Origin: Hyphomicrobiales bacterium
GTDB taxonomy: Bacteria; Pseudomonadota; Alphaproteobacteria; JBDZUN01
Assembly: GCA_040255145.1 (NCBI GenBank)
Contig: JBDZUN010000005.1
Coordinates: 1 to 38,101, forward strand
Reading direction: 5' to 3'
DNA length: 38,101 nt
This document shows, piece after piece, positions 12,130 through 37,553 of the stretch (the stretch's first letter is position 1; every line of letters begins with the position of its first letter). Under the pieces are notes generated by a model. The model saw nothing but the letters and a program-made list of their open reading frames with translations, was not told the origin of the DNA and ran no database searches. Both the position numbers and the translations under genes were made by a program.

Positions 12130-12897
12130 ATGTCGATGCCGCGCGATACCAGCCGTAACGAGGACGGAACACGCAAGACTCTGGTGCTGACCGGCGCCAG
12201 CCGCGGCATCGGCCACGCCACGGTCAAGCGGTTCTCCAGTGCCGGCTGGCGGGTGATCTCGTGCTCGCGCCATCCGTTTCCGGAGGATTGCCCGTGGGAG
12301 GCGGGGCCCGAAGACCACATCCAGGTCGACCTCGGCGATCCCGCCGACCTCGAACGCGCGATCGTGGAGATGCGCGAGCGGCTCGGCGACGGCCTGCTGC
12401 ACGCCCTGGTCAACAATGCCGGCATCTCGCCCAAGGGCGCCGAGGGCGCGCGGCTCGGCACGATGGAGACCGATTTCGACCTGTGGCGCCATGTCTTCCG
12501 GGTCAATTTCTTCGCGCCGATCCTGCTGGCGCGCGGCCTGGTGGAGGAACTGCGGCGCGCCCACGGCGCGATCGTCAACGTCACCTCGATCGCCGGCAGC
12601 CGGGTCCATCCCTTCGCCGGCGCCGCCTATGCCACGTCGAAGGCGGCGCTGGCCGAGCTGACGCGCGAGATGGCGGCGGATTTCGGACCGCTCGGCGTCC
12701 GGGTCAATGCGATCTCGCCGGGCGAGATCGATACCGCGATCCTGTCGCCCGGCACCGAGAACCTGGTCGCCCAGATTCCGCTGCGCCGCCTCGGCGCGCC
12801 GGAGGAGGTGGCCAAGGCAATCTATTTCCTGTGTACCGAGCAGTCGAGCTACGTTTCCGGCTCGGAACTGCACATCAATGGCGGCCAGCACGTCTGA
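12130..12897 (+). CDS. short-chain dehydrogenase/reductase (SDR) family oxidoreductase
   Basis: TGASRGIG cofactor motif, NNAG, and the catalytic YATSKAAL (YxxxK). The start is uncertain: there is no clear SD, and a CCTAG-TCT-CTAGG inverted repeat sits just upstream. Confidence 0.88.
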   Translation: MSMPRDTSRNEDGTRKTLVLTGASRGIGHATVKRFSSAGWRVISCSRHPFPEDCPWEAGPEDHIQVDLGDPADLERAIVEMRERLGDGLLHALVNNAGISPKGAEGARLGTMETDFDLWRHVFRVNFFAPILLARGLVEELRRAHGAIVNVTSIAGSRVHPFAGAAYATSKAALAELTREMAADFGPLGVRVNAISPGEIDTAILSPGTENLVAQIPLRRLGAPEEVAKAIYFLCTEQSSYVSGSELHINGGQHV

Positions 12898-12930
12898 AGG
12901 CGAGGGGCCGGCACAAAAACGGGGGGAAGC

Positions 12931-13791
12931 ATGGATATCGGCGTGTTCCAGATCGCGCCCAACGAATCCGCCGACGCGGCCGCGGTCGCGCGCCACGCGG
13001 AGGAGCTGGGCTTCGAATCCTACTGGACGGCGGAGCATACGATTCTGCCGGTCGAGTACAGCGTGCGTTATCCCGGCCAGCGCGAGGGCGACCCGGTCCC
13101 TGACTATCTGTGGCAGATGCCGGACCCGCTGATCAGCCTGGCGCGGGCGGGCGGCGCCACCAGCCGCATCAAGCTCGGTACTGGCATCTGCCTGGTGCCG
13201 GAGCGCAACGCCATCCTGCTGGCCAAGCAGATCGCAAGCCTGGACAACGCCACGGGCGGCCGCTTCCTGTTCGGCGTCGGCGCCGGCTGGAACCCCGAGG
13301 AATGCACGATCCTGGGCGGCGACTTTCCGCACCGCTGGACCCAGGTCAAGGACCACGTCGCCGCCATGAAGGTGCTGTGGCAGGACGATGTCTCGGAATA
13401 TCACGGCAAGTATGTCGACTTCCCGCCGGTGCGCTGCTTTCCCAAGCCGGCCCGGAAGCCGCATCCGCCGGTGCTGATCGGCGGCATCAACACGACCTTC
13501 GCGTATAAGCGCGTTGCGCAATGGGGCGACGGCTGGCTGCCGGTGCTGCGCACTGTCGAGCAATTTGCCGAGGGCGTGCGCGAGATTTCCGAAATGGCCA
13601 AGCAGGTCGGGCGCGATCCGGCTAAGCTCGACTTCACCGTATTCGGTGGCAACGGCCAGTGGCGCAGCAAGGCCGAGCTCGATGCGCTGGGCAAGGCCGG
13701 CGCAAACCGGGTCGTGATCTGGCTGAACGAGGACAAGGGCGACGCCATCCTCCGCGAATTGGACCAGGTCGCCGGGCTCGTGCTGCGCTGA
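12931..13791 (+). CDS. luciferase-like monooxygenase (LLM) family oxidoreductase, short 'F420-dependent-type' class
   Basis: MDIGVFQIAP...ELGFESYWTAEHTILP...GTGICLVPERN...FPKPARKPHPPVLIGG. It is paralogous to the 36486-37358 product. The cofactor assignment is by recall of the TIGR03619-like class only. Confidence 0.8.
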   Translation: MDIGVFQIAPNESADAAAVARHAEELGFESYWTAEHTILPVEYSVRYPGQREGDPVPDYLWQMPDPLISLARAGGATSRIKLGTGICLVPERNAILLAKQIASLDNATGGRFLFGVGAGWNPEECTILGGDFPHRWTQVKDHVAAMKVLWQDDVSEYHGKYVDFPPVRCFPKPARKPHPPVLIGGINTTFAYKRVAQWGDGWLPVLRTVEQFAEGVREISEMAKQVGRDPAKLDFTVFGGNGQWRSKAELDALGKAGANRVVIWLNEDKGDAILRELDQVAGLVLR

Positions 13792-13816
13792 GGCGCCTGC
13801 CGGCGGCCGCGCCTCG

Positions 13817-13838
13817 GCCGGCGGACAAGGCCGCCGGC
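13817..13838 (+). terminator. GC-only hairpin (GCCGGCGG-acaagg-CCGCCGGC) between the LLM and kinase genes; a possible attenuator or terminator, with no U-tract
   Basis: Perfect 8-bp stem read directly from the sequence, followed by GGGTGCTTGATG. Confidence 0.25.
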
Positions 13839-13935
13839 GGGTGCTTGATGTCGGGCGGGTGGGGCCTTAGCCTGCGCGCGCCGCAAGGCCACCAATTCCA
13901 CCGACGATCCCGCCAACGGATTCGAAACGCCAGGT

Positions 13936-15024
13936 ATGACGGAGAAGGACAAAGGCGCGGCGCGCGTCGCCACCCTTGAAGAGATCGAAACCCAGCTCGC
14001 CGCCTTCGTCGCCGTGCATTACGGTGCCGATGCGGAGGCGCGCGAGGTTGGCCCGATGCCGGGTCATGCCGGCCTGACCTTCGGCTTCGAGGTGTGGCAC
14101 GGCGGCCGGCGGCGCGATTCGCTTGTCCTGCGCATCCCGCCGAAGAACGTCCGCCGCGCCGGCAACACCGACGTCTATCGCCAGGCGCCGCTTCTGCGCG
14201 CGCTCAAGACGCAGGGGCTGCCGGTGCCGGGCGTGCCCTGGGCCGAGGTGGGCGACGACACCGAATTCGGCGTGCCCTACATCATGATGGAGCGGCTCGC
14301 GGGCGAGACCTGCTTCCTGTGGGATCCACAACCGGTCTGGCCGCGCACGGACGATACCATCCCGAACCTGTGGCGGCAGGGCGCACGCGCCCTGGCCCAG
14401 ATCCATGAATTCGACTGGCGCAGGCACCTGCCGGATTGGGAAACGCCGCGACCCGCGACGGAGGAGATCGCGCGCTGGACGCCGATCTTCGCTCAGTCGC
14501 CCGAGCCGGAATGGATCGCGATCGCCGAGGAGGTGCGCGGCCTGCTGCTCGAAACCATGCCGGCCGACATCCCGGTCGGGCTGATGCACGGCGACTATCA
14601 GATCGGCAACATCCTGTTCCAGGACGGCCAGGTCGCCGGCGTCATCGACTGGGAGCTGTCCGGGATCGGCGCGCACCTGCTCGATCTCGGCTGGTACATG
14701 ACCTTCGCTGATCCCGAGAGCTGGAGCACCAAATGGGGCCCGGTCAACCCGGCGCCGATCGCCGAATTGCAGGCGGCTTATGAGGAGGTGCGGGGCCGGC
14801 CGCAGCCCGACGTCGAATGGTATCGGGCCTTCGCCGGCTTCCGCTTCGGCTCGATCACCTGCCTGAACGTCAAGCTGCACCGGAAGGGCTATCGCCACGA
14901 CCCGGTGTGGGAGGATATCGGCCTCTCCGCCATGTCCTTGTTCGGCCGCGCCCGCGAGCTTTTGCGGGAACGCCGCGCGGCGGGAAGGAATAGGAACCGG
15001 GCGACGAGAGGAAGCGTGCCATGA
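13936..15024 (+). CDS. APH-fold phosphotransferase family protein (ACAD10/11 N-terminal kinase-like / LvaA-like)
   Basis: Protein-kinase-like fold motifs: LVLRIPPK (Lys), MERLAGE, catalytic LMHGDYQIGNILF and VIDWELSGIG. This family is commonly adjacent to FadE2/ACAD10-type dehydrogenases. Confidence 0.85.
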   Translation: MTEKDKGAARVATLEEIETQLAAFVAVHYGADAEAREVGPMPGHAGLTFGFEVWHGGRRRDSLVLRIPPKNVRRAGNTDVYRQAPLLRALKTQGLPVPGVPWAEVGDDTEFGVPYIMMERLAGETCFLWDPQPVWPRTDDTIPNLWRQGARALAQIHEFDWRRHLPDWETPRPATEEIARWTPIFAQSPEPEWIAIAEEVRGLLLETMPADIPVGLMHGDYQIGNILFQDGQVAGVIDWELSGIGAHLLDLGWYMTFADPESWSTKWGPVNPAPIAELQAAYEEVRGRPQPDVEWYRAFAGFRFGSITCLNVKLHRKGYRHDPVWEDIGLSAMSLFGRARELLRERRAAGRNRNRATRGSVP

Positions 15025-16043
15025 AGATCGCGTTCGTGCCTGACACCCATTTCGGCGCCTACGACCAGCCGACATTGCCGTCCGGCCCCGAGGTCGCGGA
15101 CGCGATGGAACACTGCATCCGCGAGGCGGAGATCGCGGAGCGCGTCGGCTTCGACGGCCTCTGGGTGCCGGAGCGCCATCAGCGGCCGGAGACATGGTGG
15201 CCGAACACCGTGACCCAGCTTACGGCCCTGGCGGCGCGGACCTCGCGGGTGCAGATCGCCTGCACCGTCATGCAGCCGACCTATCACCACCCGGTGCATC
15301 TGGCGGAGCAGCTTGCCAACATCGACTGTCTGTCGCGCGGGCGCCTGACCTTCGGCGCCGGGGTCGGCTACCACGCCGACTATTTCCGTCACTTCGGCGT
15401 GCCCTTCGACAAGCGCGGCAAGCGCTTCGAGGAAACGATGGAGGTCATCGACGCCTGCTGGACGCAGGAGAGCATGACCTATCGCGGCGAATTCTTCCAA
15501 TACGACGACGTCCGCATGTCGCCGAAGCCGTACCAGAAGCCGCGGCCGCCGGTCTGGATCGGGGCGCTGTCCGACAAGGCGCGGGACCGTGCGCTGCGCT
15601 GGGACGGCTGGATCACCTGGTTCCCGCCTTCGCTCCGGGAGTTGAGACCGCAGGTCGAGGCGATGCGCGAACGCGCCGACAAGCTCGGCAAGAAGGACTG
15701 GCAGTTCGCGATGGGCTTCGAAGGCTGGCTCGGCGACGAGCCGGACATCCGCGAGAAGCACGGCCACCGCTGGGTGCGTGAGTGGAGCTTCTATGCCGAG
15801 AAGGGCCTGTCGCACGAGATGCAGGCCGGCGACATGCTGGACACCATCGAGGACATGTTCCTGTGCCTCGGCAACAAGCAGAAATGGCAGGACCGCCTGG
15901 GCGCGATCAAGGAGCAGGTCAATCCCGACTGGATCGGCATCCGCACGCGCAACCCGGTCAATCCGGGCAAGTACTATCCGTCCCGCCAGGAATCGTTGGA
16001 AGTGGTCGAACGCTTCGGCGAAATCCTGGACGGGGTGCGCTAG
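15021..16043 (+). CDS. LLM-class flavin-dependent oxidoreductase
   Basis: MKIAFVPDTHFG...GFDGLWVPERHQ...SRGRLTFGAGVGY...PKPYQKPRPPVWIGA. The ATG overlaps the kinase stop (ATGA at 15021-15024). Confidence 0.85.
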   Translation: MKIAFVPDTHFGAYDQPTLPSGPEVADAMEHCIREAEIAERVGFDGLWVPERHQRPETWWPNTVTQLTALAARTSRVQIACTVMQPTYHHPVHLAEQLANIDCLSRGRLTFGAGVGYHADYFRHFGVPFDKRGKRFEETMEVIDACWTQESMTYRGEFFQYDDVRMSPKPYQKPRPPVWIGALSDKARDRALRWDGWITWFPPSLRELRPQVEAMRERADKLGKKDWQFAMGFEGWLGDEPDIREKHGHRWVREWSFYAEKGLSHEMQAGDMLDTIEDMFLCLGNKQKWQDRLGAIKEQVNPDWIGIRTRNPVNPGKYYPSRQESLEVVERFGEILDGVR

Positions 16044-16088
16044 GTTTGGAGCGTAATGTGTTTAGCCTGGATTGCCTTACACTCAGAT

Positions 16089-16205
16089 GTCATCCCCGCG
16101 GAAGCGGGGGTCCAGTAGACTTCGGCTGAGGGAAGTACTCGCAGCTTTCGTCGTTTACTGGATCCCGGCTCGCGTGCCCTGCAGCCGCTTGGCCGGGAGG
16201 ACAAT
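16089..16205. repeat. composite palindromic intergenic repeat, copy A (REP/MITE-like)
   Basis: GTCATCCCCGCGGAAGCGGGGGTCCAGTAGAC hairpin module (16089-16120). GTTTACTGGA (16153-16162) is inverted relative to TCCAGTAGAC. Then GGATCCCGGCTCGC-N-GCCGCTTGGCCGGGAGGACAA. The same modules recur near 29047 and 37373. Confidence 0.75.
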
Positions 16206-16306
16206 AGAATGTGAGATCACACTTGATCGCATCCCGCGTTAGGTGTGGTGGCAGTGCTGAATTTGGGAATTTTTTCCGTGATCTTCCTTACCGTGAAAGA
16301 CAGCTC

Positions 16307-17488
16307 ATGATCGACTTCTCGCTGCCGCCCGAGATCGAGGCCCTGCGCCAGCGCACGCAGGATTTCATCCGCGACGTGGTCATCCCGCGCGAGAAGGATC
16401 CGCGCCAGGACCGTCACGGTCCCAGCGACGAATTCCGCAAGGAATTGGTGGCCGAGGCGCACAAGGTCGGCCTGGTGACGCCGCAGGCGAAGAAGGAATG
16501 GGGCGGCCTCGGCCTCGACCATCGCGGCACGGCGGTCGTGTTCGAGGAGGCGGGCTATTCGCCGGTCGGCCCGCTCGCGCTCAACATCCAGGCGCCGGAC
16601 GAGGGCAACACCAACCTGCTGGAGCAGGTCGCGACGTCGGAGCAGAAGGAACGCTATCTGCGCCCGCTGGTTACGGGCGAGGTCCGCTCCGTCTTCTGCA
16701 TGACCGAGCCGGACGGCGGCGCCGGCTCCGACCCCAGCCTGATGAAGACGACGGCGCGGCCGAACGGCAAGGGCGGTTATGTCATCAACGGCCGTAAATG
16801 GCTGATCACCGGCTTTCCGGGCGCCGGCTTCCAGATCGTCATGGCGCGGACGGAAGACGCGCACGGCCACGACCTCGGTGCCAGCATGTTCCTGTTCGAG
16901 ACCGACCGGAAGGGCGTGAAGAATGCCGGCGTGCTGAACACCATGGACAACAATTCGCCGGGCGGCCACGCCATCGTCGATTTCGAGGATGTCGAGGTCG
17001 GCGAGGACGAAGTGCTGGGCGAGATCGGCCGCGGCTTCCGCTACGCCCAGGTGCGGCTCGGCCCGGCGCGCATGACCCATTGCATGCGCTGGCTGGGCGC
17101 GGCGCGGCGCTGTCACGACATCGCGGTCGCCTATTCGCGCGAGCGCCAGGCGTTCGGCAAAAGGCTGGGCGAGCACGAGGGCGTCGGCTTCATGCTGGCC
17201 GACAACGAGATGGACCTGCACAGCAGCCGGCTGTCGATCTGGCACGCCTGCTGGCTGCTCGACCAGGGCGACCAGGCGCGGCGCGAGACCAGCCAGTCCA
17301 AGGTGTTCTGCTCCGAGGCGCTGGGCCGCGTGGTCGACCGCTCCCTACAGATACTCGGCGGCAAGGGCGTCACCGACCAGACGGTGGTGGAGCGTATCTA
17401 TCGCGACATCCGCGCCTTTCGCATCTATGACGGCCCGTCGGAAGTGCACCGCTGGGCGCTGGCCCGCACCATTGTCGGCCGGAACTAG
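16307..17488 (+). CDS. acyl-CoA dehydrogenase family protein of the ACAD10/ACAD11/FadE2/LvaC-like type
   Basis: Start at ATG 16307 (MIDFSLPPEIEALRQRT...). ACAD fold motifs are present (CMTEPDGGAGSDP; GRGFRYAQVRLGPARMTHCMRWLG). The C-terminal motif reads RIYDGPSEVH where canonical ACADs have YEGT(S/N)EIQ. Confidence 0.85.
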   Translation: MIDFSLPPEIEALRQRTQDFIRDVVIPREKDPRQDRHGPSDEFRKELVAEAHKVGLVTPQAKKEWGGLGLDHRGTAVVFEEAGYSPVGPLALNIQAPDEGNTNLLEQVATSEQKERYLRPLVTGEVRSVFCMTEPDGGAGSDPSLMKTTARPNGKGGYVINGRKWLITGFPGAGFQIVMARTEDAHGHDLGASMFLFETDRKGVKNAGVLNTMDNNSPGGHAIVDFEDVEVGEDEVLGEIGRGFRYAQVRLGPARMTHCMRWLGAARRCHDIAVAYSRERQAFGKRLGEHEGVGFMLADNEMDLHSSRLSIWHACWLLDQGDQARRETSQSKVFCSEALGRVVDRSLQILGGKGVTDQTVVERIYRDIRAFRIYDGPSEVHRWALARTIVGRN

Positions 17489-18296: not shown

Positions 18297-19280
<984 letters not shown>

Positions 19281-19322
19281 CCGATCGCCTCCTTTTGTCA
19301 GACCGGTCCGGCGGCCGCGGCG

Positions 19323-20456
19323 TCAGTAATCGCCGAGCCGGGCGTACCGGTCGCGATGGAAATAGGCGTCGCCGAAGGTTGCCGCGGCGACGCGGGCACG
19401 CTTCATGTAGAGACCGATATCGTGCTCGTCGGTCATGCCGATGCCGCCGAACATCTGCAGGCATTCGTTGGTGACGCGCTGGCAGGTGTCGGACAGGCGC
19501 TCCTTGGCGAGGCTGGCGGCCTGGGGCAGGTCGTCGCGCTGTTCGTCCACCGCCGACAGCGCGTCGAGCACGGCGGACTTCGCCAGCTCGATCTGGCAGA
19601 ACATTTCGGCCGCCCGGTGCTTGAGCGCCTGGAACGAGCCGATGAGCACGCCGAATTGCTTGCGCGTCTTGAGGTAGTCGAGCGTCAGGTCGAAGCTGGC
19701 CTGGGCCAGGCCGAGCATTTCGGCGGACAGCGCGACGCGGCCGCGGTCGAGTACCCGGTCGAGCACGTCCCGGCCGCCATCGACCGCGCCCAGCACTGCG
19801 TCCGCTGCCACGGTCACGCCGTCCAGCGCGATGTGGGCGGTGTCGCGGTGGTCGACCATGTTCGTCGCCGTGCGGCCCACGCCGGCGGCGTCGCCCGGCA
19901 CCAGGAACAGGGTCAGGCCGCCTGCATTGCCCGCATCCCCGGACGTGCGCGCGACAACGATGAATTCGTCCGCCGTCTGACCGTCGATCACGAACGTCTT
20001 TTGCCCCGAGATACGAAAGCCGTCGCCGGCCTTGTCGGCCCGCGTCTCGATCCACGCCGGGTTGTGACGCGGCTTCTCGTCGACCGCCAGCGCCATGCGC
20101 CGCTCGCCGACCGCGACCGCGGGCAGGATGCGGTGCTTCTGCGCCTCTGTCCCGGCCAGCAGGACCGCCGATCCGGCCAGCGCCACGGTCGCGAACAACG
20201 GCGACGCGGTCAGCGTACGGCCGCTCTGCTCCAGCACCAGGCCGAGATTGAAGAATCCGAAGTCGGAGCCGCCGTAATCCTCCGGGAACAGGATGCCGGA
20301 CCAGCCGAGCTCCGCCATCTGGCGCCACAGATCGGTGGAATACGGAATACCGGCGTCGCGCAGGCGGCGAAATTCCGCCACCGGCGTCGTGGTCTCGAAG
20401 AAATCGCGCGCCGTGTCGCGCACCATGGTCTGTTCGTCGCTCAGGGTAAGCGCCAT
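19323..20456 (-). CDS. acyl-CoA dehydrogenase family protein lacking the canonical catalytic Glu motif (putative beta subunit of a heteromeric ACAD)
   Basis: ATG 20456 is preceded by GAGGAA (MALTLSDEQTMVRDTARDFF...). An alternative ATG at 20507 overlaps the upstream stop (TGATG). The C-terminus reads ...AAATFGDAYFHRDRYARLGDY where YEGT(S/N)EIQ is expected. Confidence 0.85.
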   Translation of the reverse strand: MALTLSDEQTMVRDTARDFFETTTPVAEFRRLRDAGIPYSTDLWRQMAELGWSGILFPEDYGGSDFGFFNLGLVLEQSGRTLTASPLFATVALAGSAVLLAGTEAQKHRILPAVAVGERRMALAVDEKPRHNPAWIETRADKAGDGFRISGQKTFVIDGQTADEFIVVARTSGDAGNAGGLTLFLVPGDAAGVGRTATNMVDHRDTAHIALDGVTVAADAVLGAVDGGRDVLDRVLDRGRVALSAEMLGLAQASFDLTLDYLKTRKQFGVLIGSFQALKHRAAEMFCQIELAKSAVLDALSAVDEQRDDLPQAASLAKERLSDTCQRVTNECLQMFGGIGMTDEHDIGLYMKRARVAAATFGDAYFHRDRYARLGDY

Positions 20457-20506
20457 GCGCCGGGCTTCCTCACATCGGGTGGGCTGGTCGGTCGTCTCGC
20501 CGGGCA

Positions 20507-21697
20507 TCAGTCGGGCAGGCCGAGCACGTTCTTGGCGATGACGTTGAGCTGGATTTCCGAGGTGCCGCCTTCGATCGAATTGCCCTTGGAGCGCAGCCAT
20601 TGCCGCGCCGTGACCAGCTCGCGCTCGGAAAACCCGTCGCCGTCCCAGCCCAGGCCCTGGCTGCCCAGCAGCGAGACCAGAAGCTCGTAGCGTCGCTTGT
20701 TCTGCTCCGTACCGAAATATTTCAGGACGGAGGCGGCGGCCCCCGCGCCGTGGCCCTGCTTCGCCTCCTCGGTCACACGGCGCATGGTCAGCGCGAAGGA
20801 GCGGCCGTCCATCTGGTGCTTGGCCACCTTGTCGCGCAGCCCCGAATCGGCGATGCGGCCTTCGACCGCGCCGACATAATCCTTGGCGACCTCTGCCATG
20901 CCGGGGCCGCCGGTGCCGCCCATCATGCCGCCGATGCCGGCGATCATCGTGCGCTCATGCTCCAGCAGGCGCTTGGCGATCGTCCAGCCGCCGTTCAGCG
21001 GGCCGACCAGGTTCTCCTTCGGCACGCGGACGTCGTCGAGGAACGTCTGGCAGAACGGCGAATTGCCGCTGATCAGGCGGATCGGGCTGGTGGAGACGCC
21101 GGGGCTTTCCATGTCGAACAGGATGAACGAGATGCCGCGATGCTTCGGCGCCTCCGGGTCGGTACGAACCAGGCAGAACATCCAGTCGGCCTTGTCGGCG
21201 TAGGACGTCCAGATCTTGCTGCCGTTGACCAGGAAATGGTCGCCCTGGTCGGCCGCGCGGGTCTGGAGGCCGGCGAGGTCCGAGCCGGCGCCCGGCTCGG
21301 AATAGCCCTGGCACCAGCGGATTTCGCCGCGCACGATCTCGGGAATGTATTTGTGCTTCTGCTCCTCGCTCGCGAATTCCAGCAAAGCCGGGCCCAGCAT
21401 GCCGATGCCGAAGCTGGTCAGCGGTGGCCGCGCCTGGATGCGGCGCATCTCCTCCTGCAGGACGCGGGCCTCATGGACCGACAGGCCGCCGCCGCCATAA
21501 TCCTTGGGCCAGGTCGGCGTGGTCCAGCCCTTGCCCCCCATCCGGTCGAGCCAGAGCTTCGCCTCCGGGTTGGGATAGCGCTCCTTCCGCCCGCCCCAGA
21601 CCGTCTCCGTCTCCGGCATCGGGCTGCGCATCGAAGCCGGGCAGTTCGCCTCGAGCCAAGCGCGAACCTCCTGGCGGAATTCTTCCAGATATTCCAT
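20507..21697 (-). CDS. acyl-CoA dehydrogenase (putative catalytic alpha subunit)
   Basis: MEYLEEFRQEVRAWLEAN...WCQGYSEPGAGSDLAGLQTRA... The C-terminal catalytic motif is retained (NSIEGGTSEIQLNVIAK). A GGAGGA SD lies 7 nt upstream. Confidence 0.9.
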   Translation of the reverse strand: MEYLEEFRQEVRAWLEANCPASMRSPMPETETVWGGRKERYPNPEAKLWLDRMGGKGWTTPTWPKDYGGGGLSVHEARVLQEEMRRIQARPPLTSFGIGMLGPALLEFASEEQKHKYIPEIVRGEIRWCQGYSEPGAGSDLAGLQTRAADQGDHFLVNGSKIWTSYADKADWMFCLVRTDPEAPKHRGISFILFDMESPGVSTSPIRLISGNSPFCQTFLDDVRVPKENLVGPLNGGWTIAKRLLEHERTMIAGIGGMMGGTGGPGMAEVAKDYVGAVEGRIADSGLRDKVAKHQMDGRSFALTMRRVTEEAKQGHGAGAAASVLKYFGTEQNKRRYELLVSLLGSQGLGWDGDGFSERELVTARQWLRSKGNSIEGGTSEIQLNVIAKNVLGLPD

Positions 21698-29046: not shown

Positions 29047-29198
29047 GCCCGCGTGCCGAGCGGGGCGCCAGTAAACCCCAAAGTCGGCGGGCCCGGCGCG
29101 AAGCCTGGTGTCTACTGGGTCCCGGCTCGCGCGGCCTGCGGCCGCTTGGCCGGGACGACAGCCAAGGAATGGATTGCCTCGCTGCGCTCGCAGTGACG
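29047..29198. repeat. composite palindromic intergenic repeat, copy B
   Basis: Hairpin CCCGC-gtgccga-GCGGG followed by CCAGTAAAC (29068-29076). The inverted partner GTCTACTGG lies at 29110-29118. Then GGTCCCGGCTCGC-N-GCCGCTTGGCCGGGACGACA (to 29160), plus an extra ATTGCCTCGCTGCGCTCGCAGTGACG module (29173-29198). Confidence 0.75.
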
Positions 29199-33231: not shown

Positions 33232-34176
33232 CTATTCCGCTGCCTTCGCCACCGCGCGGCCGTGCACCTCGGGAATCACGGTCTCGATCAGGAGCCGCGT
33301 CTGCTGGTAGAGATCCTCGTCGCCGTCGCCCAGCGGGCGCAGGATGAACTTGGCGATGCCCGCCGCCTCGTATTCGCGTACACGCTGTACCATCTCGGCC
33401 GCGTCGCCGACCACGATGGTCTTATCCAGGTTCCGCTTCGGGAACATCTTGCGGTACATCGCGCGCCGCGCCGCGCCGACCGGGTCGTCAGCCGGGCCGA
33501 AGCGGAAGAAGAAGCCGGCGGAGAAATGCTCCGGATCCATCTCGCGGCCCGCTTCGATCGCCGCCTGCTTGATCGCGGTGACGACCGGCCCTACTTCCTC
33601 CGGCGATTCCAGGCCCGCCTGCCAGCCGGTGCCGAAGCGCGCGGTGCGCCGGATCGCCGCCTGGCTCGACCCGCCGAGCCACAGCGGCAGCGGCTGCTGC
33701 ACTGGCAGCGGCAGGATCGAGGCGTCCTTGTAATGGAAAAAGTCGCCGTCGAAGGTGACCGTCTCGCCGCGCCACAGCCGCTCGATGATCTCAAGCGATT
33801 CGTCGGTGCGCTTGCCCTGGCCCTCGGTCTTGATGCCCATCGCGCCCCAATCCTGCGAATTGAGGTTGCCGATGCCGAAGGCGGGCAGAAGCCGGCCGTT
33901 GCTGAGGAAGTCGATGGTCGCGCATTCCTTGGCGATGACCAGCGGCTCGCGCAGGCCCAGCGCGATAACGTTCATGCCGAATTTGAGCTTCTCGGTGGCG
34001 CCGGCCAAAGCGGCCATCGTGCTCATGCATTCCAGGAACGGCACCGGCGCGACCATGCGGTCGGTCTGCCACAGCGAATCGATGCCGCCCGCCTCGCACA
34101 GCCGCACCCAGCGCCAGAATGCCTGCGGCCCCGAGAACGGGAAGTCCGCCAGGCCCAGTCCGATCCGTACCGCCAT
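33232..34176 (-). CDS. LLM-class flavin/deazaflavin-dependent oxidoreductase
   Basis: Start at ATG 34176 (MAVRIGLGLADFPF...GIDSLWQTDRM...LSNGRLLPAFGIGN...LPVQQPLPLWLGG). The LLM TIM-barrel pattern is present. Confidence 0.82.
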   Translation of the reverse strand: MAVRIGLGLADFPFSGPQAFWRWVRLCEAGGIDSLWQTDRMVAPVPFLECMSTMAALAGATEKLKFGMNVIALGLREPLVIAKECATIDFLSNGRLLPAFGIGNLNSQDWGAMGIKTEGQGKRTDESLEIIERLWRGETVTFDGDFFHYKDASILPLPVQQPLPLWLGGSSQAAIRRTARFGTGWQAGLESPEEVGPVVTAIKQAAIEAGREMDPEHFSAGFFFRFGPADDPVGAARRAMYRKMFPKRNLDKTIVVGDAAEMVQRVREYEAAGIAKFILRPLGDGDEDLYQQTRLLIETVIPEVHGRAVAKAAE

Positions 34177-34322
34177 CGCGTTCACTCCCTGGTATTGCCG
34201 CCATCGTCGCACCGAACAGTCGTTTTCCCAAGTCCTGGACGTTGCCGGCGCGCGCCCTACAATGCGTCGCAAAATCGGGCCGCGCCGGATTCGGGCGGCA
34301 AGCCAAGCCTGGAGGGCGCATC

Positions 34323-35396
34323 ATGGAATTCGGGGTCTCGATCCCCACGCCGGCGGATGCCTGGAAGACCGCGAAGCGGGCGGAGGACGCCGGCTATCGC
34401 ACCGCCTGGTTCTACGACACCCAGCTTTTGAGCGCTGACGTCTTCGTCGGCATGGGCGCGGCGGCGATGAAGACGGACCGCATTCGCCTCGCGACTGGCG
34501 TGCTGATCCCGTCCAACCGCATCGCGCCGGTCGCCGCCAACGCCTTCGCCAGCCTGAACGCGCTGGCGCCCGGCCGAATCGACGCCGGCATCGGCACCGG
34601 CTATACCGGCCGGCGTACCATGGGCCTCGGCCCCTACAAGCTGGCCGATATGGGCGAATACATCCGCGTCATGCAGGCGATGTGGCGCGGCGAGACGCCG
34701 GAGATCAGGATCGAGGGCAAGACCCGCAAGGTCCGCTTCCTCAACCCCGACGCCAAGCTGATCAATATCGACGATGAGATGCCGGTCTATGTCTCGGCCT
34801 TCGGGCCGAAGGCGCGGCGGCTGACGGCCGAGGTCGGCGCCCACTGGATCAACGTCGATTTCAACGAGGACCTGGCGGCGCAGGCATCGCAGGACATGGA
34901 CCAGGTCTATCGCGACGCGGGGCACGATCCGGCCAAGAAGCGCAAGGTGGTCTTCCTGTGGGGCTCGGTGCTCAAGGAGGGCGAGGCCTATGACAGTCCG
35001 CGCATCAAGGCGGAGACCGGGCCTTTCGCGGTGATGATGCTGCACAACGCGATGGAGGCGCAGGACCACGGCGACCTGGTCGAATCCGCCGCGCCCGACA
35101 ACGAGATCGCCCGCCTGGCGCCCGAATACCGCAAGACGGTCTATGAGAAGTATCAGCCGGCCGAGACGCGCTATCTGAACCTGCACCGCGGCCATCTGAT
35201 GTTCGTGCGGCCGGAAGAGGAGCGGTTCGCCACCGCCGAACTGATCCGTACCGCGACCATCACCGGCACCGTGGCGGAGCTGCGCGACCGCATGCGCCGG
35301 CTGAAGGATGCCGGCTATGACGAGGTGGTCGTGCAGGTCACGCCCGGCCACGACAGCATGGTCGAGGACTGGGCACGCGTGTTCGAGGCCGTCTGA
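34323..35396 (+). CDS. LLM-class flavin/deazaflavin-dependent oxidoreductase (Mer-like long form)
   Basis: ATG 34323 lies 7 nt after GGAGGG (MEFGVSIPTPADAWKTAKRAEDAGYRTAWFYDTQLL...APGRIDAGIGTGY...); 357 aa. Confidence 0.82.
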   Translation: MEFGVSIPTPADAWKTAKRAEDAGYRTAWFYDTQLLSADVFVGMGAAAMKTDRIRLATGVLIPSNRIAPVAANAFASLNALAPGRIDAGIGTGYTGRRTMGLGPYKLADMGEYIRVMQAMWRGETPEIRIEGKTRKVRFLNPDAKLINIDDEMPVYVSAFGPKARRLTAEVGAHWINVDFNEDLAAQASQDMDQVYRDAGHDPAKKRKVVFLWGSVLKEGEAYDSPRIKAETGPFAVMMLHNAMEAQDHGDLVESAAPDNEIARLAPEYRKTVYEKYQPAETRYLNLHRGHLMFVRPEEERFATAELIRTATITGTVAELRDRMRRLKDAGYDEVVVQVTPGHDSMVEDWARVFEAV

Positions 35397-35444: not shown

Positions 35445-36473
35445 ATGGCCGTCGATTGCGGCGTTCTTTGGGGGTTCCGCAACCCCGACTTCAACAAACG
35501 TCCGTGGGCGGAGGTCTATCAGAATGAGCTCGACCTGATCGTCGACTCGGAGAAGCTCGGCTTCGGCCATGCCTGGCTGACCGAACATCATTTCGCCGAT
35601 GACGGCTATTCGCCGTCCCTGATGGCGATCGCCGGTGCGGCGGCCGCGCGCACCAGGCTGATCCGTATCGGCACCTTCGTGCTGCTTCTGCCGCTGCATG
35701 ACCCGATCGAGGTGGCGGAGGACTCCGCGACCGTCGATATCATCTCGAACGGCCGGTTCGACCTCGGCGTCGGCCAGGGCTACGTGCCTTACGAATTTGA
35801 TCCGCGCGGCATCCCGCACAAGACGCGCGGCCGGCGGATGGAGGAAGGCCTCAACATCCTCCGTGGTCTGCTGACCGGCGAGAAGTTCAGCTTCGAGGGC
35901 AGGCACAACCATCTGGACAACATCCGGATCGTGCCGCCGCCGGTGCAGAAGGACTTCCCGATCTGGGTCGGCGCGCGCGGCGACAAGGCGCTGGACCGTG
36001 CCGCGCGGCTCGGCTTCCATCTGGCCTCGGTCGGCGTCGCGCATCATCGCGACAAATATATCGACGCGCTGAAAAGGCACGGCCGCAATCCGGACGATTT
36101 CAACGTCGTGCAGCTCGTCACCTGCTATTGCGCCGAGACGCATGAGAAGGCGTGGGACGATATCGCCGATGGCTTCCACCACGTGCTGAAATACTACCAC
36201 GACTGGGCGGTCGCATCGGGCGACGTGACGGGTGACGTGGAAGGTCAGGCGGTGCCGACGCCGGCGCAGTTCCGCAAGGAGCAGAAGGGCGAGTTCTTCG
36301 GCGAGCCCGCCTTTGTCGGTACGCCGGACGAGGTGCTGGCCGGCCTGCAGAAATACCTCGCGCGGTCGCCCGGCTCGCATCTCGTCATGTACATGGCGAT
36401 CCCTGGCAATGCGCCGGAAAACACGCGCCGTAGCATGGAGCTGTTTTCCAAGCACGTGATGCCCCGCCTCTGA
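35445..36473 (+). CDS. LLM-class flavin-dependent oxidoreductase
   Basis: ...KLGFGHAWLTEHHFADDGYSPS...SNGRFDLGVGQGY...PPPVQKDFPIWVGA...; 342 aa. Confidence 0.85.
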   Translation: MAVDCGVLWGFRNPDFNKRPWAEVYQNELDLIVDSEKLGFGHAWLTEHHFADDGYSPSLMAIAGAAAARTRLIRIGTFVLLLPLHDPIEVAEDSATVDIISNGRFDLGVGQGYVPYEFDPRGIPHKTRGRRMEEGLNILRGLLTGEKFSFEGRHNHLDNIRIVPPPVQKDFPIWVGARGDKALDRAARLGFHLASVGVAHHRDKYIDALKRHGRNPDDFNVVQLVTCYCAETHEKAWDDIADGFHHVLKYYHDWAVASGDVTGDVEGQAVPTPAQFRKEQKGEFFGEPAFVGTPDEVLAGLQKYLARSPGSHLVMYMAIPGNAPENTRRSMELFSKHVMPRL

Positions 36474-36485
36474 GGAGAAAACGTC

Positions 36486-37358
36486 ATGCGCATCGGCATC
36501 CAGGTCGCATTCGCCGGCCCCGCCGCCGACCCCGTTCATGTGCGCGAGACCGCGCGGCGGGCGGAGGCGGTCGGCTTCCATTCGATCTGGGTGCCGGAGC
36601 ACGTGGTGCTGTTCGAGGAATACGCCTCGCGCTATCCCTATTCGGCCGACGGCAAGATCGGCGGCGGCGCCCACCTCGCGCCGCCGGAACCGCTGACCTG
36701 CCTCGCCTTCATGGCGGCGTGTACGGAGAAAATCCGGCTTGGAACCGGCATCCTGATCGTGCCGCAGCGCAACCCCGTTTATACCGCGAAGCAGGTCGCC
36801 GACCTCGACGTGCTGTCCGGCGGACGGTTCGATTTCGGCATCGGCGTCGGCTGGCTGGCGGAGGAATTCCAGGCGCTCGCCGTCCCGTTTGAACATCGCG
36901 GTGCCCGCGCCGACGACTACCTGCGCGTCATGAAGGCGCTGTGGACACAGGAAACGTCCTGTTACGACGGCAAGCTCTACAAGCTGCCGCCGGTGGTGCA
37001 GAACCCCAAGCCGGTGCAGAAGCCGCATCCGCCGATCTATGCCGGTGGCGAATCGGACGCGGCGCTGTCACGTGCCGCCCGCCTGTGCCAGGGCTGGTAC
37101 GGCGTCGCGCTGACGCCCGAGACCCTGCCGGACCGGCTCAAGGTGCTGGACGCGAAGCTCGCCGAGAACAATCGCACACGGAAGGATATCGCGGTACTGG
37201 TGTCGCCCTATGCGGCGAAGCCCGACCTCGACATGGTCCGCCGGTTCGAGGACCAGGGCGTGGACGAGGTCGTGCTGATGGCGATGCATTCGAAGCGCGA
37301 GCGCGTCTACCAGATGATCGACGACCTGGCCGAACGCATCGTCGCCAAGGCGGCGTAA
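36486..37358 (+). CDS. LLM family oxidoreductase, short 'F420-dependent-type' class (paralogue of 12931-13791)
   Basis: MRIGIQVAF...AVGFHSIWVPEHVVL...GTGILIVPQRN...SGGRFDFGIGVGW...NPKPVQKPHPPIYAGG; 290 aa. Confidence 0.82.
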   Translation: MRIGIQVAFAGPAADPVHVRETARRAEAVGFHSIWVPEHVVLFEEYASRYPYSADGKIGGGAHLAPPEPLTCLAFMAACTEKIRLGTGILIVPQRNPVYTAKQVADLDVLSGGRFDFGIGVGWLAEEFQALAVPFEHRGARADDYLRVMKALWTQETSCYDGKLYKLPPVVQNPKPVQKPHPPIYAGGESDAALSRAARLCQGWYGVALTPETLPDRLKVLDAKLAENNRTRKDIAVLVSPYAAKPDLDMVRRFEDQGVDEVVLMAMHSKRERVYQMIDDLAERIVAKAA

Positions 37359-37372
37359 ACGTCGTCCTTCTT

Positions 37373-37537
37373 CCGTCATCATCCGCGCAGGCGGATGATC
37401 CAGTAAACGGCCGCCGTGGTGCGAGCGGGCGAGCGCAAATCCTGGCTGTCATCCCGGAAGCCCGCAGGGCTATCCGGGATCCATAAGAACAGGAACGGAT
37501 CCCGGCTCGCCTAAAGGCCGCTTGGCCGGGATGACAA
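37373..37537. repeat. composite palindromic intergenic repeat, copy C
   Basis: GTCATCATCCGCGCAGGCGGATGATCCAGTAAAC (37373-37406). A second hairpin module GTCATCCCGGAAGCCCGCAGGGCTATCCGGGATCC lies at 37446-37480. Then GGATCCCGGCTCGC-N-GCCGCTTGGCCGGGATGACAA (37495-37535). Confidence 0.75.
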
Positions 37538-37553
37538 TGATGTGGACTGACGA

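Follow-up and report, generated by a model that had tools for sequence, protein, structure and literature searches.

The window analysed here is a stretch of 38,101 nucleotides (68% GC) of contig JBDZUN010000005.1 from a bacterium of the Hyphomicrobiales; its genes and the names attached to their nearest homologues indicate an uncultured member of the Pseudomonadota. It carries five genes on the same strand (12130-17488) that would encode a short-chain dehydrogenase/reductase (SDR), a luciferase-like oxidoreductase (LLM1), a kinase of the aminoglycoside phosphotransferase (APH) fold, a second luciferase-like oxidoreductase (LLM2) and an acyl-CoA dehydrogenase (ACAD). Our analysis makes it likely that the SDR, the kinase and the ACAD form a core that feeds 4-oxo- and 4-hydroxyacyl-CoAs into beta-oxidation by the chemistry of the lva operon and of ACAD10 and ACAD11, with the two LLMs inserted among these genes and not conserved parts of the system. 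In the known route a 4-oxoacyl-CoA is reduced by LvaD, phosphorylated by the LvaAB kinase and relieved of its phosphate by LvaC (PMC6692424, PMC11342911, PMC12440821; the lva operon work of Rand et al. 2017 is taken as summarised in PMC6692424). An original prediction, made from the sequence alone, had proposed a split form of this chemistry in which the LLMs might take part. The placement of the ACAD, its active-site residues and its conserved pairing with the kinase support the core of that proposal; the inclusion of the LLMs found no support in the comparison with related loci.

The five gene families were confirmed with Pfam and NCBIfam, and the predicted motifs, the ATGA overlap between kinase and LLM2 and the 263-bp gap before the ACAD all agreed with the coordinates (Table 1). 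A metagenome scan with the single kinase as query gave no matches, and an alignment of 27 kinase sequences used as the query worked. The comparison set comprised 136 fetched loci, and trees were built by neighbour joining with 200 bootstraps.

An LvaC-type dehydrogenase and its kinase partner

The start codon of the ACAD, which is 393 amino acids long, agrees with the starts of its homologues and of the cluster representative P0001. The protein carries the motif RLGPARMTHCMRWLG at residue 250 and RIYDGPSEVH at residue 372, and its best solved relatives are 4hr3, a putative ACAD of Mycobacterium abscessus, and mouse ACAD11. Residues R250, H258, R261 and D375 align with R626, H634, R637 and D753 of ACAD11, the stretch R250-LGPAR-MT-H258-C-M-R261 falling on RLGPGRIHHCMR of that protein, and D375 matches the Asp in LADGPDEVH of ACAD11 and in 4hr3, giving a catalytic Asp instead of the usual Glu. 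The R626/HCMR cluster has been described as conserved only among ACAD10/11 and LvaC; R626, H634 and R637 bind the 4-phosphate, mutants of the arginines and histidine lose phosphate elimination, and the D753N mutant of ACAD11 is without ACAD activity (PMC12440821).

Sequence comparison places the protein in the same company. A protein search of a plasmid collection returned a relative 60.2% identical over the full length, the ACAD of Pseudomonas aeruginosa plasmid p12939-PER, which sits in an operon of the exact order lvaR-A-B-C-D-E-F-G with lvaB annotated by name. Over the core that aligns with ACAD11 the identity to LvaC is 63%, whereas the ordinary ACADs taken as outgroup reach 27-32%. In the tree the window ACAD groups with its metagenomic relatives (99%), and this subclade falls within an LvaC clade (93%) to which proteins of Stutzerimonas, Azoarcus, Cupriavidus, Rhizorhabdus and Thermus also belong; the LvaC clade is sister to ACAD11 and 4hr3 (98%), and the ordinary ACADs lie outside. 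The ACAD is thus assigned by sequence to the LvaC family of the LvaC/ACAD10/ACAD11 lineage, as originally predicted, and it is a putative 4-phosphoacyl-CoA phosphate-eliminating enzyme. That it is instead an ordinary alpha,beta-dehydrogenating FadE, with the kinase an unrelated neighbour, is extremely improbable. Ordinary ACAD structures do score about 180 bits, not far below 4hr3 and ACAD11 (187-193), but the exchange of Glu for Asp within DGPSEVH, the presence of HCMR and the Arg upstream of it, and the LvaC identity with its strongly supported clade lead us to reject this reading.

The kinase has HGDYQIGN at residue 218 and IDWE at residue 237, and the catalytic residues D220 and N225 and the metal-binding D238 of DWE are invariant in the 27 members of its clade. 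Its PDB sequence matches are 9o56 (the best), 3dxp, 9fsg, Rv3168 (3ats) and the kinase domain of ACAD11, with no aminoglycoside or choline kinase below 1e-3 among them. An AlphaFold2 model (pLDDT 92) gave the 25-hydroxysteroid kinase entries 9ft5 and 9fsg as top Foldseek matches, followed by 3dxp and Rv3168, with homoserine kinase and the APHs trailing by several orders of magnitude. The kinase therefore groups with kinases of hydroxy-lipids and acyl-CoAs, and not with those of aminoglycosides, choline or homoserine.

The closer affiliation that had been expected, with LvaA or the kinase domains of ACAD10/11, did not hold. Identity is 17-21% to LvaA-type kinases, where BLASTP gives E ~1e-6 over 46 residues, and 22-27% to the ACAD10/11-type group (ACAD11, 3dxp and 9o56). 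The tree gives the window kinase and its relatives a clade of their own with 100% bootstrap, separate from LvaA and sister to, not inside, the ACAD10/11-type group, and this clade has the signature motifs NTDVYRQAP and HGDYQxGN. On these grounds the kinase is placed in a third, uncharacterised clade, neither an LvaA orthologue nor of ACAD10/11 type. It looks active and is a putative hydroxyacyl-CoA kinase. The plasmid collection held no close cultured relative of it (best 31% identity). An LvaB-like partner was looked for with LvaB and the Azoarcus DUF6285 protein as queries, and tblastn across the 38-kb window gave nothing with E <0.3; the small open reading frames (ORFs) that adjoin related kinases are not LvaB-like either. 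Tblastn found no LvaE-like ligase in the window, and none of the ORFs that were run against Pfam showed an AMP-binding domain, so that the predicted lack of both LvaB and a CoA ligase was borne out.

Kinases and ACADs of these two types also travel together elsewhere. The kinases closest to that of the window (61-70% identity) are directly followed by the closest ACADs (79-88%), often with an overlap of the two genes. We surveyed 29 loci that had a clade kinase of at least 42% identity and enough downstream sequence; in 14 of these an LvaC-type ACAD with HCMR and DGPxEVH follows directly, the ends of the two alignments being at most 83 nt apart. The pair is adjacent or overlapping in L001, L040-43 and L136, whereas in the window LLM2 stands between the two genes. 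Frequent neighbours of the pair are acyl-CoA ligases, thiolases, enoyl-CoA hydratases, TetR or GntR regulators and SDRs, and the L042 neighbourhood also has a lactonase-like SGL domain. Clade kinases that lack the ACAD still stand among genes of acyl-CoA metabolism, namely those for a CoA ligase and MaoC hydratases.

Two loci of the comparison set, L001 and L042, have two kinase/ACAD sets side by side. The first comprises an ACAD11-type ACAD (50% to mouse ACAD11), a thiolase and a second kinase, and the other a window-type kinase with an LvaC-type ACAD. The double sets are preceded by a CoA ligase, and in L042 also by the SGL protein.

The third member of the core is the SDR, whose partnership had been predicted and is upheld by the close relative L136, where an orthologue 90.6% identical lies 117 nt upstream of a kinase-ACAD pair that overlaps by ATGA. 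By analogy and position the SDR is a candidate LvaD-like 4-oxoacyl-CoA reductase. We take the conserved core to be a three-gene SDR-kinase-ACAD unit, and the simplest reading is that the layout of L136 is ancestral.

Insertions and recent changes within the cluster

L136 carries neither LLM, and its SDR, kinase and ACAD are contiguous, which indicates that LLM1 and LLM2 of the window are insertions. The nucleotide identity to L136 is 85% for the SDR and the ACAD and 76% for the kinase, which suggests a separate history for the kinase-LLM2 segment. The only other occurrence of the kinase-LLM2-ACAD triad is in one relative, represented by two contigs of one sample (L039 and L135) with about 92% nucleotide identity to the window. 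A survey for conserved triads had been suggested, and this is all that it returned; the LLM adjacency is essentially confined to this strain and its near relative, an outcome that the original prediction had itself named as telling against it, and none of the 14 surveyed pairs has an LLM between kinase and ACAD. Synteny with L039 by blastn begins at 13843, just past the hairpin 3' of LLM1.

The wider distribution of the LLMs is also unrelated to the pathway. LLM2 has 36 orthologues elsewhere (68-81% identity, in metagenome-assembled genomes (MAGs) of Gammaproteobacteria), which share one neighbourhood of hydantoinase B, an acetone-carboxylase gamma subunit, hydantoinase A, a FAA hydrolase, a Zn-ADH and a second LLM, and at no time is an APH kinase or an LvaC-type ACAD beside any of the 36. 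The orthologues of LLM1 (65-76% identity) have varied contexts. No remnants of the acetone-carboxylase-like genes that usually adjoin LLM2 were found in the window, and the plasmid collection held no close cultured relatives of LLM1 (best 38%) or LLM2 (best 33%). We infer that both LLMs are lineage-specific, recent insertions and not conserved components of the pathway, although LLM2 is probably co-transcribed with its genes.

The LLM2 orthologues (L003-L038) are consistently divergent from an acetone-carboxylase-like alpha/gamma/beta set, and after each LLM2 orthologue comes the second LLM. The cluster is conserved in Gammaproteobacteria and apparently uncharacterised. An APH-LLM-ACAD order seen in L078 and L098 was rejected as a further example of the triad: the proteins are distant (~30%), the ACAD has the canonical motif YGGTNEI, and the supposed LLM match falls on a doubtful antisense ORF.

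Both LLMs exceed the curated NCBIfam cut-off of TIGR03619 and are probably F420-dependent oxidoreductases of that type. In L131, a Porticoccaceae MAG, an LLM1 orthologue (70%) stands beside a second LLM, Fno, CofE, CofD, CofC and CofG/H, and this second LLM is 60% identical to the LLM at 35445-36473 of the window. Since two LLMs of the window thus have orthologues that flank an F420 biosynthesis operon, the host is probably an F420-using, LLM-rich proteobacterium, and the window has no cof or fbi genes. It does have six LLM genes in its 38 kb, so that an LLM as neighbour says little here.

These observations bear on the possibility that LLM2, and perhaps LLM1, is a working F420H2- or flavin-dependent step recruited to widen the substrate range. 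Such an enzyme would produce the 4-hydroxy or 4-oxo group or use it up, as an analogue of LvaD, or process a precursor derived from a ketone or lactone. The scores of both LLMs for TIGR03619 are in keeping with this, as are a BVMO-like FMO and a LEH/SnoaL gene just upstream in L039, the hydantoinase A/B, LLM, Zn-ADH and ligase genes upstream of the kinase-ACAD pair in L002, and, in L052, an LLM gene that diverges from a clade kinase. The triad is however present in only two genomes, which at about 92% identity are too close to show selection, and L136 and the 14 other pairs do without an LLM. The different conserved neighbourhood of the LLM2 orthologues, the varied contexts of LLM1 and the abundance of LLMs in this genome also speak against recruitment, which we hold to be unlikely. 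We give still less weight to a fuller version, in which LLM2 was recruited as, for example, an F420H2-dependent 4-oxoacyl-CoA reductase or a ketone/lactone enzyme and the kinase represents a third, LvaB-independent family of hydroxyacyl-CoA kinases.

The junctions between the genes also appear to have changed recently. The ATGA overlap had been read as translational coupling of kinase and LLM2, and the overlap itself is real, but it arises from the loss of a stop codon: in L039 a spacer of 28 nt separates the two genes, and one substitution removes the kinase stop codon used there (window 15000-15024 against L039 4930-4985). The window kinase extends 10 codons beyond the L039 stop, reading through the region of the LLM2 ribosome-binding site, and its C-terminal tail RNRNRATRGSVP is probably not functional sequence. 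At the other end, the leader of the kinase is kept in L039 although the genes upstream there differ (AraC, LEH and BVMO), and it is a probable promoter and ribosome-binding region of the kinase's own.

The gap between LLM2 and the ACAD, with the repeat that had been noted in it, is likewise real, but some 210-230 nt of it are missing in L135, where the gap measures only about 52 nt; the 33 nt nearest the ACAD start are kept. It was enlarged in the window by a dispersed palindromic repeat. The repeat core GGATCCCGGCTCGCG...GCCGCTTGGCCGGGAnGAC lies in the gap and has two partial, intergenic copies further along the window. No exact copy of the palindrome core was found in the 136 fetched loci, the partial copies being inside the window itself, and the insert looks like a REP- or MITE-like dispersed element. 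A scan for promoters and terminators turned up nothing that resembles a promoter, and terminator-like sites were rarer than in shuffled sequence; an Rfam scan of 11-21 kb gave nothing relevant.

Two further features follow the ACAD, both on the opposite strand. A small ORF just 3' of it has a counterpart at the same position in L135. Beyond this, an aldo/keto reductase (AKR) precedes an ACAD gene pair that resembles the heteromeric alpha/beta ACADs, a block that is syntenic with the LvaC-type ACAD in L135.

Table 1. Features of the window and of the related loci discussed in the text
Feature	Locus	Position	Strand	Remarks
SDR	window	12130-12897	+	adh_short_C2, 8.9e-50 (Pfam)
LLM1, luciferase-like	window	12931-13791	+	Bac_luciferase; TIGR03619 236.4 bits, cut-off 166.9
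GC-rich hairpin 3' of LLM1	window	13795-13845	+	fold -49 kcal/mol, z only -1.2
93-nt leader 5' of kinase	window	13843-13935	+	kept in L039
APH-fold kinase	window	13936-15024	+	PF01636, 5e-28
Kinase stop overlapping LLM2 start	window	15021-15024		ATGA
LLM2, luciferase-like	window	15021-16043	+	TIGR03619 180.8 bits, cut-off 166.9
LLM2-ACAD gap	window	16044-16306		263 bp
Insert with palindrome and dispersed-repeat core	window	16044-16273	n/a	missing from L135
Long imperfect palindrome	window	16097-16176		fold z = -2.3
ACAD, LvaC-type	window	16307-17488	+	ATG start; all three ACAD domains
Small ORF	window	17557-~18012	-	signal-peptide-like N-terminus, no Pfam match
AKR, then ACAD pair	window	18297-21697	-	
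ACAD pair, beta-like member	window	19323-20456	-	without catalytic Glu motif
ACAD pair, canonical member	window	20507-21697	-	GGTSEIQ
Partial repeat copy	window	~29113-29165		intergenic; also delimited as 29113-29160
LLM gene	window	33232-34320	-	
LLM gene	window	34119-35396		
LLM gene	window	35445-36473		
LLM gene	window	36486-37358		
Partial repeat copy	window	~37510-37545		intergenic; also delimited as 37517-37538
AKR and ACAD-pair block	L135	2733-6132		
Two kinase/ACAD sets	L001	3461-9200		
Two kinase/ACAD sets	L042	6520-12261		
LLM2 orthologue cluster (example)	L012	813-10138		
LLM1 orthologue beside F420 operon	L131	6001-12861		
lva-operon ACAD	L125	8001-9173		
Gene order	window			USP - SDR - LLM1 - kinase - LLM2 - repeat - ACAD
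Gene order	L136			USP - Uma2(-) - SDR (90.6% aa) - 117 nt - kinase (70%) - ATGA - ACAD (87.6%)
Gene order, part	L039			TauE - BVMO-like - LEH - AraC(-) - kinase - 28 nt - LLM2
Gene order, part	L135			LLM2 3' end - ~52 nt - ACAD, followed by the genes that are downstream in the window

The predicted pathway and the substrate of the kinase

The pathway that we favour would have three steps. The SDR would reduce a 4-oxoacyl-CoA to the 4-hydroxyacyl-CoA, as suggested by the analogy with LvaD and by its conserved adjacency. The kinase would then phosphorylate the 4-hydroxyl with ATP, for which it has intact catalytic residues and a conserved pairing with LvaC-type ACADs. Finally the FAD-containing ACAD, with its 60% identity to LvaC and all of the phosphate-binding and catalytic residues present, would remove the phosphate in a net redox-neutral reaction to give the 2-enoyl-CoA. 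Activation with CoA would have to be encoded elsewhere in the genome.

Several observations weigh against this pathway. No CoA ligase or transferase was found within the 38-kb window, and about half of the kinase-clade loci are without an adjacent ACAD. The SDR is 31% identical to LvaD of the P. aeruginosa plasmid lva operon, a similarity at the level of SDRs in general, and identity between the kinase and its characterised relatives is only 17-27% throughout. ACAD11 contacts CoA through R86 and R176, according to molecular dynamics modelling (PMC12440821), and the position of R176 falls on a Glu of the clade motif EEIxRW, while the RE motif of helix alpha-C in ACAD11, 3dxp and 9o56 is replaced by NTDVYRQAP; at such low identity these alignments weaken membership of the ACAD10/11 type rather than function. 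The structural neighbours of the kinase include the 25-hydroxysteroid kinase and an alkylglycerol kinase (preprint), whose substrates are without CoA. LLM2, for its part, is kept in a tight operon in the sole available relative (L039 and L135) and may thus have a recruited function.

Some of these points would be accommodated if the kinase acted on a CoA-free hydroxylated lipid, such as a steroid or terpenoid tertiary alcohol or an alkylglycerol, and the ACAD worked on some other intermediate. The top Foldseek matches and the missing R176 would suit such a substrate, and so would the best PDB sequence match, as 9o56 appears to be the Caldalkalibacillus (C. thermarum) kinase of the ACAD10 preprint, reported there as an alkylglycerol kinase (matched by description, no PDB code being listed). 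The AKR and the alpha/beta ACAD pair downstream, in a layout kept in the relative, point the same way. This is nevertheless improbable, given that across many loci the kinase adjoins, and often overlaps, an ACAD with every phosphate-binding residue, that the neighbours of the pair are so often enzymes of acyl-CoA metabolism, and that even the loci without the ACAD have a CoA ligase and MaoC hydratases. We therefore retain a 4-hydroxyacyl-CoA as the probable substrate of the kinase and the three-step route as the reading of choice.

Comparison with known systems

Like the lva operon, the window cluster has an ACAD of the LvaC clade, identical in its active-site residues, and an SDR that accompanies the pair; the predicted chemistry, from 4-hydroxyacyl-CoA through 4-phosphoacyl-CoA to enoyl-CoA, is the same. 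It differs in that its kinase is not an LvaA orthologue and has no LvaB/DUF6285 subunit or histidine phosphatase with it, that no LvaE ligase, LvaR regulator or LvaFG transporter lies near the cluster, that the SDR is upstream and not immediately after the ACAD, and that two LLM genes have been inserted. A gene of the histidine phosphatase family lies beside the kinase in many LvaA/DUF6285-type clusters (L126, L127 and L129; Azoarcus, Thermus and Stutzerimonas) and has been noted for P. citronellolis (PMC6692424); clusters of the window type have none.

With ACAD10, ACAD11 and their split bacterial counterparts the window shares an APH-fold kinase that works with an ACAD of the Asp/HCMR type, and its kinase keeps D220, N225 and DWE in a clade that is sister to theirs. 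The window ACAD, by contrast, is 37% identical to the ACAD11 domain and belongs to the LvaC sister clade, not to that of ACAD11 and 4hr3; the kinase, at 25-27% identity, has HGDYQxGN, not HGD(F/Y)(K/R)LDN, and no equivalent of R176; and kinase and ACAD are separate proteins in the window while they are fused in mammalian ACAD10/11. The ACAD of an lva operon (L125) is also 37% identical to the mouse ACAD11 domain in our comparison, whereas P. putida LvaC has been stated to be 56-62% identical to human ACAD11 and ACAD10 (PMC11342911); possible causes of the mismatch are another protein, another region, or similarity given in place of identity.

Structurally, the kinase model comes closest to the 25-hydroxysteroid kinase (9fsg/9ft5), whose product-bound entry 9ft5 shows this fold phosphorylating the hydroxyl of a lipid. 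The steroid kinase is 21-22% identical to the window kinase, its substrate is a steroid and not an acyl-CoA, and the entry shows no ACAD partner. The LLMs are related to the Rv2161c-type proteins of TIGR03619, both by score and through the LLM1 orthologue by the Porticoccaceae F420 operon. Here the host is a proteobacterium with its F420 genes outside the window, and the analysis came upon no family member whose substrate is known. The main lesson of the LLM insertions is the instability of this operon in an LLM-rich, probably F420-using proteobacterium, and they would matter for the pathway only if the enzymes were shown to act on its intermediates.

The phosphorylate-then-eliminate route for 4-hydroxy acids is already established from the lva and ACAD10/11 systems, and so is the split arrangement of kinase and ACAD, which has been described for the lva operon and for Burkholderia pseudomallei, where the separate pair replaces the ACAD10 domains in vitro (PMC11342911). 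What the window adds is a further partner for LvaC-type ACADs: at least three kinase clades that are not orthologous to one another pair with them, namely LvaA with LvaB, the ACAD10/11 type and that of the window kinase. This third clade is abundant in environmental Proteobacteria and uncharacterised, and its substrate range would show how the work is divided among the kinases.

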